A DNA stretch of 64,000 nt from Rhizaria sp. SCN 62-66 (GCA_001724265.1 MEDY01000042.1:62001-126000), one strand, 5' to 3'; positions 4,182 through 16,055 are shown, counted from the first letter of the stretch. Program-made: numbers and translations. The notes: generated by a model not told the origin, from the letters alone.

Positions 4182-4636
4182 ATGTCCACACATGCTGCTG
4201 CTGCTGCTGATGGCAGCGGTGAGATTTACGTGCAGCGTATGATTGCCGGCATCATCGTTTCCGCCATCACCTCTGCCGCACCCTCTCATTGTAACAACAA
4301 AGACACTGTGACCGCCGCTGCGGAGGACACTGCAGCTGCTGTGTCCTAGTGCGGCACTGAGGACGACGACAGCTCTGTTAAGGTGTACATCCGCAGTCTT
4401 ATCGAGGAAATTATTACCAGCGCCATCGCCCAGGCCTCCGCTCCCACTGCTGCGGTCGCTGCAGTCGCTCACTCCGCAGACGCTGGGGCGACCGCGTCTA
4501 CTGCAGACGCCGCCTCCGCAGCGCACCCTGCTCTGCCCGCTGCACTCTGCGCCGACCTCGCATCCGCGGCCGCCCGGTTGGCGTCCGCCCGCGCCGCCGC
4601 GCGCGCCGAGCTCGACCGCGGCAGCGAACACACGCG

Positions 4637-9591: not shown

Positions 9592-9957
9592 GAAATTGCT
9601 TTTATTTTGATGTATATATTCTCTGATTCGTTTGTTTTTGACCAGTGTGTGGTTTGGGCCAGGCAAGTGAAGGCTGTACCGAAGCCCGTTGCTCTTGTAT
9701 AGGCATTACGTCAGCCCTGAATCGTTAATTCAACAAACTATTGCGATTACGCGCAATTAGTATAACTAATATATAACCTCTTTTAATTATCACTCTAGAA
9801 TCGTTCATATTACATGTGTACTCTTCTTTGAAAGACTTTGCAGTTCTTTGCCAGAGCCGTTGCAAACCAACGTTATTGAACCCATATTTAATCATCTTAC
9901 TGATCTCAATTCGCGCATTAACCTTGATTTCTTGTTGTAACACACTGATTTTCAAAG

Positions 9958-11565
9958 ATGTCTGTGGGGCGCATCACCCCCGTGAAGAAGCGCGCCGTGC
10001 GCGAGGCTGACGGGACAATCCGTATTCTCGAAGACGGCGAGCAGCCAGGTGACTTTAAGGGCTCCTTCCGCGAGCCTCCGCGGCGCGCGCACAACGCGTT
10101 CAAAAACCCAGGCCACCACTTAGAGGACCGCGTGCAGAAGATTCTCACATGGGAAGGTTTTTCGCGCGTCGAGATCAACCGCCTTGTGCGCGACGGCGAC
10201 GGTAATTTATCGGAACTGGACGTCGTAGGCTGGGGCGGCCGTTACTTTTCGCGCTGGCTCCCGCGCTCCTGGTCTCCGCTCAAGTTTGGGCAAGGCTCTG
10301 TGTTTGTTGAGTGCAAGCGCTATAGCCAGGGCAACCCCGTGTCTCTGGCCGACGCCGCGAAGTTTAAGGAAGTCGGTGTTTTAAACAACCTCCCACGCCG
10401 CAACATGCTCATGGTAACGACATCGTCCTACGTGCCGCGCGCGCGCAAGATCGGCATCTCTACGGTCGACGGCGCCGCGCTGGCCAAGTGGGAGCGCGCG
10501 GCGTGGCGCCGGTTTCGCCAGCGCCGCGTGCGCCGCGCGGTGATCGGCGCTGTCGTCGGCGCCGCGGCGCTCACGGTCACCTGGGGCGCGTCAAAGGCAC
10601 GCGAGCTGCGCACAAAGCGGTGTGACTCGGCTCCGTCGCGCGACGCGTCGCTGTTTTCGCGCAAAGTGTGGGAGATGACTGGGACGAGTGCGCCAGCACA
10701 GAGGCGCGCGTTTCTGATGTCGTCGTCAAACACCAACGCTTCTGCCGTCACAAGTACCAGCGGCTCCTCACAGTCTTCGTCGTCGTCGTCTCGTTCAACG
10801 TCGACGTGGCCTGGACTGGGCGTTGTTGTGACGCTGCACTCAGCCACCGCGGCTGCGCGCGCCGCCGCAGACGCCGCGTCTGCTTCGGCCACCGCTCTCG
10901 AGACCGCCGCCGCCGCCGCCGGTGCCGCTGCCGCTACGAACAGCAAGGCACTCGCAAACAACAACAGTTCCGGTGCCTCGAAGACGGCGAGTGGGGCGAG
11001 CGCTGACTCTGTTGCTGCTGTGAACACGTCGTTTTCGGACACGATGTTGACGAACCCTTTCGAGTCGCTGTGGTCTGTTCCCGTCCGCGCCCTCAAGCAA
11101 ACCGAACTGGGCAAGTCCATCTCGAGTGTGCTAGAGCCATCTCTGGCGGACGAGGAGCAGCGCCGCCGCCGCAAGACCACCGGCGAGCTCTCCTTCGCTG
11201 ACCGCGCCGGTGACGTTGCCAGAGTCGGTTGGAGCGGGGCTAAGCGCGCCGCGTCGTGGCTGCGGCGGCCTGCGGGCGGGTTCCGGACCTGGTTTTGGGC
11301 CAGGAACGACGCTGTTGAGATCGTGTGGATGCCCGCTGGCTGCGCGCTGAGCCACCCACATGCGACCGTGGGGCCCGCATGCGCGTCGTGGTTCCCCGAG
11401 CAGGGCGAGACGCCGACACACACCGCGGCCGGGCGCAACCAGAGCGGGGGGGCCGCGCAGCATGAGAGTGAGGTGGTGCGGCCTGTAAGGCTCTTCAGGA
11501 TCCCGGTTCCACACTTTTTGTCCGTGCCAAAGGTTGGGGCTTTTGTGCCGCAGTCCTCCCGTTGA
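9958..11565 (+). CDS. Mrr-like (type IV restriction endonuclease fold, PD-(D/E)XK) domain protein with a TM segment and low-complexity tail, 535 aa
   Basis: GHHLEDRVQKIL..EGF..VE...ELDVVG...VFVECKRY...PVSLADAAKF...MLMVTTSSYVPRA...GISTVDGAALAKW follows the Mrr_cat pattern. Hydrophobic AVIGAVVGAAALTVTWGA follows a basic stretch. No intron. Stop TGA. Confidence 0.8.
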   Translation: MSVGRITPVKKRAVREADGTIRILEDGEQPGDFKGSFREPPRRAHNAFKNPGHHLEDRVQKILTWEGFSRVEINRLVRDGDGNLSELDVVGWGGRYFSRWLPRSWSPLKFGQGSVFVECKRYSQGNPVSLADAAKFKEVGVLNNLPRRNMLMVTTSSYVPRARKIGISTVDGAALAKWERAAWRRFRQRRVRRAVIGAVVGAAALTVTWGASKARELRTKRCDSAPSRDASLFSRKVWEMTGTSAPAQRRAFLMSSSNTNASAVTSTSGSSQSSSSSSRSTSTWPGLGVVVTLHSATAAARAAADAASASATALETAAAAAGAAAATNSKALANNNSSGASKTASGASADSVAAVNTSFSDTMLTNPFESLWSVPVRALKQTELGKSISSVLEPSLADEEQRRRRKTTGELSFADRAGDVARVGWSGAKRAASWLRRPAGGFRTWFWARNDAVEIVWMPAGCALSHPHATVGPACASWFPEQGETPTHTAAGRNQSGGAAQHESEVVRPVRLFRIPVPHFLSVPKVGAFVPQSSR

Positions 11566-11893
11566 AGTGGCTGATTTACAGTCCTTGCGTCGAGGTCTGT
11601 GTGGTGCAAAGTGTGACGTTATTTAACGCGTGGCCAAGTGCCAACGGTCAAATTTCTTCAAGTTGATCGAATCTTCGAGGATCATTTTGAAAGAAATTCA
11701 CTCGTTATATTGTGTATGTTTAAGTTTATCATCACATTTTTTTGATTGAATTTCTTGCTGTGTACGCTATTTGTTATTTAGACGTTGTATCTGGTTAGGT
11801 CTCCTGCGCTGATACATAACACCATTCTCTGCATCTTCCCAGTCTGTTCGTCCCTCGAATCGTTCGTGACTTCGCACAACAGCACCCACAACT

Positions 11894-14800
11894 ATGGGGT
11901 GCATTGCCTCCTCAATGGAGGAGCCAGTGCAAAGCTCTTTGCCGCAACAAGTTCCGAGCCCTGCAAGTGCTGCAAGTCCAGTGTCACCCCTCGTCGTATC
12001 CCTGTCTCATCGTGATCCCACGTCTGTGATGACACACAGCGACGAGATTGCAGAGGCGGCCACAACTGGCAGCTTAAAGCCAAAGCCATCTCAAAGCAAC
12101 GCAAAGTGCGCTACTTCAGGACCTATCGCACCGGTTGTGCGAGTGCGTAGCCGCTCAGATCTCACTGGCACATTCGGCACCTCGGACAGCGAAGGTGACA
12201 ACGTAAACGGGACTGCGTCTTCAAGTTGTCGCACCAGCGACACCAACGGCAACTTCTTTGAGATCGACACTGACGAGGAATTCTATCCAGACGCCGACGC
12301 CGTGCTGCGCGGACTTGCCATCGGCGCATTATCCCCGTGTCATCGGTCTGCGGCTAGGACAGAATCTTTCGCCCACAGCGGCACAGCGCCTGGCGCTACT
12401 GCGCAGCGGCTGGGTCTCGCTCTCACGCGGCCTGCTCCGGGGCGACACGCCACCTCACTCACTGCAACTGCAAGCAGCATGGAGCGCGTGCGCGCGAGTG
12501 TGCTGACGCAGCCACAGTGCTGTGTTGTGCGGCCGGCTGCGAGTGCGCGACTGTGGCTCGGTCCGTTTTTGTTGCGTGACTCAGTTGTTGCGCACAGCGG
12601 CCGCATCTGCACACTTGCATCAGCAGCTGTGAACTCGGTGAACGCGAGCAGCGGTGCAACAGAGAAGCGGTGCTATGCAGTGACTGTGGATGGCAAACAT
12701 GGTCTGCCGAAGCTGTGGGCAACGCAGCTGAAGCAAACACAAGCTCCGACTAAAGCAACTGAGGCTATGAAAGCTGTTGCGCTAAACAAACCCCAGCGCC
12801 CGCGAAGTGGTTTTGTAGCATTCTATGCCCCTGACACGGCTGATAGGGAGAATGCCAATCTGTGGGGCGAAGATGAAAATGACGCAAACGCTGGTAACGT
12901 CAAGGCTAGCAAAGGTCTTGCGAGCAAGCGCAATGGCGGAGATCAACGCACTCGTATCACCTTGGCGCACCCGCTGCTCGGTCACCACGCAAATGCACCG
13001 ATTCACGCTGTTGCATTAATGCCGTTTAAGCACCATACCGAAGAGAACGAGACGCTTGTGGTTGTCACAGGAAGCGAAGACTGCACGCTTAAGGTCGTAC
13101 GTTCAAAAAACGAGTGTGTTTGACTACTCTAACTTTCATATCGTAAAATTGAACCGACCCACTTAAGCTAACCTATGACTAAATCACATGTGTTTCATTT
13201 TATTAAGCGTAGTGGTGCCCTGAGACAGGCATGTGCGTCCGCACTTTTCTGCGTCACTCAGCAATTCTGCACGCCACTCTCATTACTGCACCGTTACCCA
13301 CAGCTTCTACAGACGGCAAACACGTGCAACACAGGGTTGAATGCCCGTGGGTGCTGTGGAGCGAGGCCGGCAGCAGCACTGTACGCGCGCTTGCGATTCC
13401 ACAAGAGAGGAATGTTGCGGCGCCAAGTTTTGATCGGACACATGGTCTTCCGTTGCACAGTGCATCATTGGCCACTGTACCGCCATCACCAAAGCGCAGC
13501 GCCACAGTTGGCACTCTTTCGTCTTCGATAGTGCTTGGGACTGATGAGAAGCATGACGAAGAAAGCACACACAACATGGCAAACGCCGCCAGTGGGACGC
13601 TGAGGAATGTTACTGGTGACACACAGGGTAAGCCAACGCCAACAGTTGATCGCAAGAGTGGGGGGGCCAGCTCAACTCATTGTGCTGCCGGCTTACAGTC
13701 GCATTTACAGCCAGTCAATAACGGCGTTCAAAATGTACCCACAAACTGTGCGCCTGCGGGGGTTATTGCCACTGCTGACAGGATACCTATTACTGGAGCT
13801 CGTGGTCTACCAAGGAGCCGCAGTGCCAGTACAGTAACTTTGTCTCCATCAAGTCGCACCTTGTCAACTTTCGAAGAAGATTTTTCATTTGCACATTTAT
13901 CTCGTAGCAACTTAGAGCACCGCGGAGTCAAAACTCAAAGTCAAGCACATGAAACAGTTGATCGCGATTTACTCGAGAGCAGCCACGGGCAGCGGTTCAG
14001 CGCACTGCACACGAATCCTCTTGGTGCTTACAGTCATCTGTCGCCTCGTGGCCGCATCAATGCAAATAACAGTGTTCATACTGTGCACGGATCCGTACAG
14101 CGTCGCGGTGACGCCTGTGTAAGCTCGGATGCGCGAAGCCACCTGCCTGCGCCCATCATTGCGGTCACTGACAAAACAGCATCTCACGGGCACAGTTCTG
14201 TTTTACATTGCAACACTGAGAGTCGTGCTATTTCGCCGTCACCTGCAACAAGTGCTGCATCTCGCGCTTTCATCTTTCCGACTTTGCCAGCTGTACCACC
14301 ACAGGTCGCACTCGTTGCATCTCCGACAATGGCGCGCGCATTCGCCGCCAGCAAACACACTGTGGATACGACACGCGCTGATGCACACACTGCCGTTGTC
14401 AACGGGCTGGATGAGCCGTTACGTCTACGCTCACACAGTCACCAGCCATGGGCACTGATACCAGTCAAGGCCGCGTTCTTTTTAAGTCCTCATAACGCAA
14501 CGCGTGGCGATGCTGATGCAGCTCAGCGCAACTGCTAGCACGACAGCGGTTACGGTGGGTGTTTGAGTATTGCGCGAGATGGGGTCCGTCTGTGGCGGCC
14601 ACCTGCGATGTTGCCAGTCGCATTGTGGCCACTGCCTGATGTCCCTGCGCACAAGGATCATCCGTCGACCGCATTGCGTCCGCTGCTCACAGTCACTGCG
14701 GCTTGTATCGGACCGCCTGGAGTTCTACTCCTTGCCGGTACTGTTGCAATCGACGCGAAGATCGCGATCACACAGCACTTGCCAGCAACGCAAGGGATTG

Positions 14801-15747
14801 TACTTGCTATCTGCGCATTTACTGGCACAGTAATCTCGTCAACAGTTCTCTCGCATCCCGTTGACGGTAAGGCTAAACCGGTGATTGCAAGCAGTGATAA
14901 GCGAGGATGGTTCACACGACTGATCAGTGCAAGTCCTACAGTGGACGCGGGGGTCAAGGAGCTTGTCACTGCGGCAACAGGAGACAATGCGATTTCCCGC
15001 AATTACGTAAATGCTGCCGGCACTAGGATTAAGAGCTCTAGTCACGCTAGTTTTGCCCACAATGCGCACGTTGGTTCTTCTGGCAGCAGTGCCTGTGTTC
15101 CTCATAAGATCGTCTCAATGGCGTTGCTTGGCCTCAGCGAATGCGCTGGCTGCGAAGTGACCGTGGCCGTTGCCCTCAATTGTGGTGCTGTCGGCACGCT
15201 GCACTGGAAGCTGTACAGCGAACACACTCCGATGTGGGCACCGGCGCATAGTCACCTTGAGGGTGATGTTCATGAACATTACACGAAAGAGAACTTGACA
15301 AGCAGTGCGAACAGCATGGTGGTCACAGATGCTGCACAGACTGCATTAACTACTTGCGTAAGCAGTGCGGTTGCAACCAAAGATACGTTACTTGATCACT
15401 CTAAGAACGTCTTGTCCAAAATAAGCGCTGACCAATCGCCAGTTAAAAACAACAACGAAGAAGTGACTGTTGGGCCGTGGGTTCGCGTAGTTAAGGGACT
15501 GGATGCTTGCTCTTGCAGCGCACAACAGCAACAGCAACGGACTGCAACTGCAGCTACTCATGGTTACCTGGGCGCAAAGAGCCACACCGTTGATAGCGTT
15601 CGGAGTGGACCTCATATGATTTTAGCAGCGGCAACAATGCCCACAGTAGCAGTAGCGGGTGCAAAGAGGCTAGAAGGGTCAGGGTTGTTGCTTGTGGCAC
15701 GCGAGGACACTCTTCAAATTGTGCAAACAAACCCAGATAAACAATAA
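11894..15747 (+). CDS. Degenerate WD40-repeat protein with long insertions (~1245 aa if the in-frame TAG at 14536-14538 is read through); exons 11894-13096, 13213-15747
   Basis: Splicing 13097-13212 (GTC|gtacgt...cgtag|TGG) reconstitutes a WD40 repeat GHHANAPIHAVAL...VVTGSEDCTLKV|WCPETGMCVRTF. ORFs 13231-14538 and 14563-15747 are in the same frame across a single TAG. Stop TAA. Confidence 0.7.
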
Positions 15748-16055
15748 TTCAACTCTTAATACAGATCCTCTTTTATTTCAAGTCGGTGCGGTGCCGACTA
15801 TCGTGACAATGTGCAACTTGAAATGAGAGTTGAGAGGGATCTGACTTGAAGCAAACAATTCTCGAGATCGCATCGTCATATCAAACGATTTATGTTGAAT
15901 AGAAAAGGTGAACGAGCGAACACATTCTAAGTCTTTATTATCTCACCAGATTTGTTGTGGTTGCTTCGCTCCATCTTGTTGAGGTTCAGATAGCAACAGT
16001 ACGATTCTTCGCCCAACTTCAAGTCGTCTGCGCTTATTCCCAGTGCCCGAAATTC

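Follow-up and report, generated by a model that had tools for sequence, protein, structure and literature searches.

An isolated TAG in an otherwise long open frame raises the question of whether translation ends there and, if it does not, how the codon is read. The frame lies in a window of 64,000 nt (G000:C42:62001-126000), the whole stretch of DNA that was analysed, which belongs to a eukaryotic metagenome bin of 34.9 Mb in 714 contigs. The likely answer, favoured here, is a variant nuclear code in which UAG would be read as glutamate (Glu) by a tRNA with a CUA anticodon, UAA and UGA would remain stop codons, eRF1 would be poor at UAG and the gene would yield a protein of 1245 residues. The features which bear on this are collected in Table 1.

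Table 1. Positions of the features discussed (window coordinates unless a contig or locus is named)
Feature	Position	Strand	Description
Exon 1 of the orphan gene	11894..13096	+	401 codons, begins MGC; ORF 11870-13123; putative start site
Weak WD40-like motif	12974..13096	+	PF00400 match; its final Trp is the first codon of exon 2
Intron	13097..13212	+	116 nt, phase-0 GT..AG, 34% GC; absent from X5 contig 8, which has the joint 13096->13213
Exon 2	13213..15747	+	844 codons and TAA; one in-frame TAG; X5 contig 8 covers it continuously to 15742
In-frame UAG	14536..14538	+	codon 843 of 1245; sense codon, probably Glu
True terminator TAA	15745..15747	+	
Second in-frame UAG of the window	4347..4349	+	flanked by coding-like sequence, with 82 open codons upstream and 610 downstream
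In-frame UAG of eRF1	L046:1594-1596 = G000:C63:103463-103465	-	codon 107 (human numbering), N-domain
tRNA(CUA) gene	G000:C84:76008-76080	-	full 73-nt cloverleaf, 58 bits to RF00005, then a T-run

The orphan gene and its in-frame TAG

Around the TAG, the first-pass annotation had counted about 440 open codons upstream and about 400 downstream. The exact numbers are 441 (13213-14535) and 402 (14539-15744, followed by TAA), and the peptide matches the one that had been quoted. The annotation was right that this stretch is open and in frame, but it overlooked that the stretch is exon 2 of a longer gene with an ATG at 11894. Once spliced, the gene has 1245 codons, of which TAG is codon 843, with no further internal stop and no frameshift. 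Among 2000 random sequences matched to the downstream part in length and dinucleotide content, the longest stop-free run was 312 codons (mean 114), and therefore the downstream frame of 402 codons is not due to chance. The GC3 of the gene is low (0.47-0.55, with 0.47-0.49 in exon 2) compared with 0.67-0.83 in neighbouring genes. Below-average GC3 was also seen in many other TAG-bearing genes.

RNA and strain evidence came from four of the 18 sequencing runs listed, which were compared over 11700-16000. Contig 8 of run X5 (3100 nt, extending over 12527-15742 with one differing letter, at 13444) lacks the intron and is therefore derived from mRNA. This spliced contig keeps the TAG at 14536-14538, where it shows neither a joint nor an indel nor a substituted base, and a contig of run X4, from another study, covers 13348-16000 with six differences, none of them at the TAG. 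No contig of runs X7 or X8 spans the TAG; exon 1 has coverage from RNA-type contigs of runs X5 and X7. The TAG lies within an exon, is fixed and has not been edited in spliced RNA, where the absence of a junction refers to the major isoform only, since contigs hide rare variants. The view of the first-pass annotation that the TAG is no splice acceptor agrees with these data, as no junction ends at 14538 in the spliced contig of X5, and the triplet is also present in X4. A sequencing error or a polymorphism, both of which had been considered, is very improbable too, as the triplet is kept in contigs from different studies.

It is barely credible that the TAG acts as a splice acceptor, an A-to-I editing site or a site of gene-specific programmed readthrough, or that it is an assembly error. 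The two weak donor candidates that had been named, GTACCA at 14293 and GTCAAG at 14464, are present and both in phase 0, TAG is a common acceptor in this genome (four of the nine lone TAGs in kinase matches), and the base after the window's TAG is C. However, the contigs of X5 (spliced) and X4 both read TAG at this place, uninterrupted by a joint or an indel, which refutes an acceptor for the major isoform and would leave it at most to a minor one. No AT-rich intron precedes the TAG, as had been claimed: the 60 bases before it have 52% GC, compared with 34% in the real intron of the gene. Readthrough specific to one gene is also opposed by the mixed base that follows 34 TAG sites (C 15, T 7, G 7, A 5).

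The surroundings of the TAG had been read as a WD40 blade, and it had been concluded that translation should not end at a codon which would cut a repeat in half. The conclusion stands but the reason given for it is unsupported: even with the E value relaxed to 10, 14380-14700 matched nothing in Pfam, a result that still allows for a highly divergent blade. When the gene was scanned in pieces, only the last part of exon 1 gave a Pfam match, a weak one to PF00400 (17.4 bits against a cut-off of 27, E 0.0068), and neither exon matched any family when scanned whole. Evidence for several WD40 repeats is confined to this one sub-threshold match in the piecewise scan, the whole-exon and homologue searches giving none. 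The likeness to WD40 beta-propeller proteins (PF00400) consists of one weak motif across the junction of exons 1 and 2; unlike them, the protein has no further detected repeat and none at the TAG, contains long low-complexity inserts and lacks homologues.

Structure prediction and an alignment of orthologues had been proposed as checks, and neither was of help. The fold of exon 2, predicted from the single sequence without an alignment, has a mean pLDDT of 32 and is uninformative, and among 1.84 billion representatives the only homologues of the protein are the gene's own two halves, as which it is stored, cut at the TAG, in the public protein set. The downstream half has no homologue among longer proteins, which is weak evidence. 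The protein is an orphan. It could perhaps be a beta-propeller that has diverged very far and has long inserts, and the MGC at its start, a lipid-anchoring motif, suggests attachment to lipid. No special role of the TAG in this protein need be assumed.

Elsewhere in the window, the TAG at 4347-4349 is exonic and lies in an unrelated alanine-rich gene. The gene at 9949-11565 encodes a domain resembling the Mrr_cat restriction endonucleases (E 1e-4), which is unusual for a eukaryote. An intronless frame of 9617 codons (24866-53719) encodes SPRY, RanBP zinc finger and HECT domains and contains no TAG; other HECT frames of 9,600-14,000 codons were found elsewhere in the genome.

TAG at gene ends and inside genes

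The causes that the first-pass annotation listed for the TAG did not include a genome-wide change of code. Gene ends were called in a sample of ~1 Mb of the 34.9 Mb by a coding model trained on the long frames of the genome. Stops after strong coding sequence numbered 111, of which 80 were terminal-like, 12 lay after a donor and 19 had coding sequence beyond them. The terminal-like stops were TAA in 48 cases, TGA in 31 and TAG in one, and this sole TAG has 1590 open codons behind it and is hence internal. With the gene ends of extra loci (TAA 4, TGA 2, TAG 0), the total is 85: TAA 52, TGA 33 and TAG 0. Because TAG makes up 102 of the 489 stop triplets in 3' flanks, the probability of finding none among 85 ends is ~2e-9. 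TAG is absent from these gene ends.

The 19 stops with coding sequence on both sides comprise 15 TAG, three TAA and one TGA. In 663 kb, the coding model counted 16 TAG, two TAA and no TGA of this kind, both TAA lying in one decaying kinase copy, and in 464 kb not selected for having a stop there were nine TAG and no other stop. A looser coding filter gave TAG 24, TAA 7 and TGA 6, with the TAA and TGA rows not individually inspected, and a model-free test gave TAG 26, TGA 14 and TAA 8, intronic and off-frame cases included. The window's own TAG was missed by the coding-model filter because the GC3 of its gene is low, and was recovered by the model-free test. Among 142 kinase matches, nine had a lone TAG (five exonic, four splice acceptors), one a lone TAA and none a lone TGA. 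Exonic TAGs were also found in eRF1, SUV3, MetRS, two USP proteins (a USP5-like one among them), a zf-PARP protein and at window position 4347.

Scans of ten other families had a low yield: DEAD, ABC, kinesin, dynein AAA_6, SNF2 (mixed-stop matches left out), AAA, HECT, TTL, WD40 and tRNA-synt_1c. The last of these gave candidate genes for GluRS and GlnRS on contigs C207, C27 and C9. No exonic TAG was found in the ABC, AAA, HECT, TTL or WD40 matches, and the TAGs checked in the DEAD, kinesin and dynein AAA_6 matches were intronic. The frequency of UAG is ~0.14 per 1000 codons (16 sites in ~116,000 coding codons); GAG occurs 27, GAA 6 and CAG 31 times per 1000. Extrapolation to the 34.9 Mb would give some 1,200 in-frame UAG sites. 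Taken over the genome, UAG is almost certainly used as a sense codon.

The kinases include an expanded family (L009, L010 and L011) with repeat-like C-termini, low GC3 and many in-frame TAGs. In one copy, L009, a TAA and a frameshift accompany the TAGs, and this copy looks decayed. Two lower-GC contigs, G000:C681 (L088) and G000:C651 (L087), look mobile or viral. They carry a ubiquitin domain behind a duplicated unknown domain and before a segment that presumably resembles a tail chaperone, and their in-frame TAGs sit opposite Gln of the genome's own ubiquitin and of the repeat.

It is very improbable that the orphan gene is decaying, with the window's TAG as a nonsense mutation in it, and that the excess of TAG in the genome stems from CAG-to-TAG changes in pseudogenes. 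The gene has been fixed for its TAG in two independent studies, carries it in spliced RNA, and runs for 1245 codons with no frameshift or other stop. Decay would fit its low GC3 and lack of homologues, the seven non-synonymous changes among 11 strain differences in its coding sequence, and the kinase copy with TAG, TAA and frameshift. The other four strain differences are synonymous, none is a stop or a frameshift, and together they neither show nor exclude selection on the gene. Moreover, pseudogenes would leave unexplained the TAGs of eRF1, SUV3 and MetRS, the missing TAG terminators and the CUA tRNA.

The release factor, the CUA tRNA and the residue inserted

Only one eRF1 gene was found (contig C63). 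It ends in TAA, is GC3-rich and otherwise well-biased, and has an in-frame TAG of its own. In an alignment of 117 of 120 matches, from which three long or fused ones were excluded, the column of this TAG holds E in 109 homologues, D in seven, V in one, and Q and K in none; the V belongs to P0004, the closest relative (85%). Two changes stand at conserved positions: T32S, where all 107 homologues with a residue there have T, and G57S, where all 117 have G. A third, T58K, is shared by P0004, whereas E55, NIKS, L69 and S70 are unchanged. According to Panek et al. (PMC5304391), it is Thr32 that touches the G at the third position of UAG, and Iotanema has another residue there. The changes T32S, in the GTS motif, G57S and T58K may weaken the recognition of UAG, as would be needed for a code with UAG as Glu. 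Two further matches, on contig C34, were rejected as eRF1 since they are pelota-like by eye.

A scan of metagenomes with eRF1 found one identical contig (L130) with the same TAG, perhaps from the same source, and no near relative. Four unrelated eRF1 transcripts from metagenomes (L132, L133, L134 and L139) have one or two in-frame TAGs before their first TAA; these could be terminal TAGs or belong to other variant codes. In plants, eRF1 reportedly regulates itself by readthrough. By analogy, the UAG inside the present eRF1 frame could act in the same way, or, as one site at the frequency of UAG, it may be there by chance. A more far-reaching proposal, which is attractive but unlikely, is that of a new nuclear code at an early stage, the second independent reassignment of UAG in Rhizaria, with the UAG of eRF1 as a feedback switch. 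UAG would have been emptied from gene ends and would be re-entering genes, at ~0.14 per 1000 codons and with one tRNA gene. As for bacterial prfB, more eRF1 activity at UAG would truncate eRF1 and thereby hold down termination at UAG.

A tRNA gene with a CUA anticodon exists on contig C84, which also carries kinase, kinesin, TTL and WD40 matches. It was one of four matches to a general tRNA pattern; a Gln-type pattern and a narrower one found no CUA tRNA. Compared with 50 other tRNA sequences of the genome, it is closest to Glu(CUC) (score 47) and next to Glu(UUC) (38), and its 13 best matches among them include no Gln tRNA. It is identical to tRNA-Glu at 47 of 73 positions. Common to it and Glu(CUC) are U1-A72, C2-G71, C3-G70, the T-stem, U11-A24, U13-G22, A46 and the missing base 47, and it has G73 in common with Glu(UUC); the genome's own Gln(CUG) tRNA has G1-C72, U46 and U73. 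When the Glu-type acceptor and T-arm were used as a search pattern, ten matches were obtained, namely the CUA tRNA, eight Glu(CUC) and one Glu(UUC). Among the Glu identity elements of E. coli are U11-A24, U13-G22:A46, the missing 47, U35, A37 and C36 (PMC9976931), of which C36 is lost here. The body of the tRNA is the main evidence for Glu, and suggests that a C36A change in a tRNA-Glu(CUC) gave rise to the single CUA gene, whose product would decode UAG. No UUA or UCA tRNA was found in 24 matches to a pattern that covers intronless, short-arm tRNAs only.

UAG could also be ambiguous, with substantial termination by eRF1 and partial suppression, so that the orphan gene would give products of 842 and 1245 residues. 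Little credence is given to this. One CUA tRNA gene was found, T32S is a mild change, and UAG is confined to some 16 sites per ~116,000 coding codons, with no exonic TAG in the ABC, AAA, HECT, TTL and WD40 matches and intronic ones where checked in DEAD, kinesin and dynein. However, some genes should still end in UAG if it terminated well, and 0 of 85 do; the only eRF1 gene found has a UAG in its own N-domain. Decoding of UAG is probably inefficient, since the codon is very rare and avoided in conserved domains. A small leak of termination is part of the explanation by a Glu code, and only substantial termination would set ambiguity apart from it.

Given that UAG is a sense codon genome-wide, its residue is probably Glu. 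Only the seven residues one step from UAG were scored against Pfam domains, at 11 sites (those of L009 and L088 included), and the summed bits were E 749.5, K 746.8, Q 745.5, S 740.2, Y 731.8, L 729.6 and W 724.3. The sum excludes Leu, Tyr and Trp, and separates Glu weakly from Lys and Gln, which trail by 2.7 and 4.0 bits, respectively. The lead of Glu comes mainly from a kinase hinge site, eRF1 and a CaMK site, and E was best at none of the four sites in a second Pfam batch. In six comparisons with solved structures, the residues opposite TAG were D/S, C, S/G, S, Y/A and Q (NEK1), and never E. Judged from proteins alone, the call of the residue is weak.

The context of 34 TAG sites, with those of L009, L087 and L088 excluded, was also scored. 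The difference between E and Q was +14, compared with 54 to 104 for true E and -173 to -47 for true Q. The flanks fit neither pure Glu nor pure Gln, as would be expected if most of the sites had arisen through mutation where constraint is loose. Tyr came first in this ranking; this was put down to composition and set aside, since Tyr lies 18 bits below Glu in the domains.

UAG might be sense throughout the genome but stand for Gln, as in Iotanema, or for a mixture of Glu and Gln, if GlnRS charged the CUA tRNA via U35; this seems improbable. In the closest paralogue or repeat, compared by eye, Q is opposite the TAG at four sites (the genome's own ubiquitin, an internal repeat and two kinase-paralogue sites) and D, K and T at one each, and Q is also found in NEK1. 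Three of these four Q sites, however, are in the decaying kinase copy or a mobile-looking contig, and at one Q site a second paralogue has D. Q accounts for 8.1% of residues in TAG flanks, against a background of 4.0%, but the flanks as a whole are far from pure Gln use. Of the codons one step from TAG, CAG is the most frequent (31 per 1000) and differs by a transition, and therefore a Glu code, too, would be expected to show sites derived from Q. In E. coli, several tRNAs turned into amber suppressors insert Gln (PMC9976931), whereas the body of the present tRNA is of the Glu type and unlike the genome's Gln tRNAs, and Q is found in 0 of 117 homologues at the eRF1 TAG. What we infer for the Glu code is that the tRNA is charged with Glu, that the altered eRF1 recognises UAG poorly and that the gene is translated in full through codon 843; the tRNA gene and the eRF1 changes themselves are observed.

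The organism and known variant codes

The organism, which is uncultured, has been present in several wastewater and bioreactor studies. An exon of RPC2 from the window groups with four sequences (support 100/99) inside a clade of 16 rows with Amorphochlora, Spongospora and Nonionella (85/90), in a tree of one gene with 52 rows (its own and 51 of 120 matches) that holds no stramenopile or clear alveolate row. On this basis it is likely a member of Rhizaria. The genome has ~11 dynein heavy-chain loci and many kinesins, which suggests a flagellate. An insertion at the junctions of polyubiquitin is a marker of Rhizaria. Divergent ubiquitins starting with MSMQIFVK were found at four loci (L086, L089, L179 and L180), with monomers that carry a short C-terminal extension or a fusion to L40; none of the assembled sequences contains a polyubiquitin junction. 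The 18S rRNA gene (L085, G000:C706:4459-8903), 4.4 kb long, is AT-rich and has diverged very far; it contains several large insertions that resemble group I introns, one with an ORF-like sequence, and has tandem repeats upstream and in the spacer. Rosculus vilicus, reported with 37.7% GC (PMC10770858), is a poor fit to the GC-rich window.

In the rhizarian exLh (Sainouroidea) UAG stands for Leu, and in Iotanema spirale for Gln; UAG alone is described as reassigned in both, and the eRF1 of I. spirale has T32G (PMC5304391). The present genome would resemble them in that only UAG is reassigned and UAA and UGA are stops, and exLh is rhizarian too. It differs in that UAG is probably Glu and very rare, and in its eRF1, with T32S and G57S and L69 kept; a CUA tRNA, which is only a prediction in that report (PMC5304391), was found here. 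Phyllopharyngean ciliates are reported to use UAG for Leu or Gln (Gln in Hartmannula and Trochilia) and Scotinosphaera to use it for Ser (PMC11687900). These codes also change UAG only and keep UAA as a stop, but with other residues and in other lineages. The features of a UAG-only code found here are in-frame UAG in conserved, expressed genes, gene ends with UAA and UGA but no UAG, a CUA tRNA with no UUA tRNA among the pattern matches, and an altered eRF1 N-domain.

The ciliate Oligohymenophorea sp. PL0344 reads UAG as Glu and UAA as Lys, with tRNA-Sup(CUA) genes 69-93% identical to tRNA-Glu; ten CUA tRNA genes and >10,000 Pfam-aligned UAG codons were described (PMC10553269). The likeness lies in UAG as Glu through a CUA tRNA most similar to tRNA-Glu (here at 47/73 positions). 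In contrast, UAA is reassigned too in PL0344, whereas the present genome uses UAA as its main stop and yielded a single CUA tRNA. In Blastocrithidia spp. and peritrich ciliates, UAR is Glu, with a tRNA-Glu(CUA), and the reassigned codons are avoided in highly expressed genes (PMC12153298, PMC11687900); Blastocrithidia also has UGA as Trp and an eRF1 with Ser70Gly (PMC12153298). The points of likeness are the tRNA-Glu(CUA) and this avoidance. UAA is Glu in these organisms, whereas here S70 is kept and no UUA tRNA was found. As to the features of a code with UAG as Glu, a CUA tRNA which appears to derive from tRNA-Glu is present and reassignment of UAA is absent, TAA being the commonest terminator. 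Alignment of UAG with conserved Glu is strong at eRF1, comes to a lead of 2.7-4.0 bits over 11 sites and is found in 0 of 6 PDB comparisons.

In print, UAG as Glu is described only alongside reassignment of UAA (PL0344, Blastocrithidia and the peritrichs), and reassignment of UAG only has been published for Leu, Gln and Ser. The literature searched, with few subscription journals in it, contained no code with UAG as Glu and UAA as stop and no such cercozoan. To our knowledge, only a small number of nuclear code changes lie outside the ciliates, and reassignment of UAG is almost always coupled to that of UAA.

A change of UAG alone to Glu would, if true, be a new entry in the table of codes. 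The tRNA, the changed eRF1 and the emptied gene ends occur together while the codon is still rare, which would make codon capture and an ambiguous intermediate testable against each other in this organism, and it may be culturable because it is present in several wastewater studies. T32S and G57S are natural candidates for an eRF1 that ignores UAG alone, and are of relevance to amber suppression. Standard gene callers split genes that bear TAG, and the orphan protein is public as two halves.
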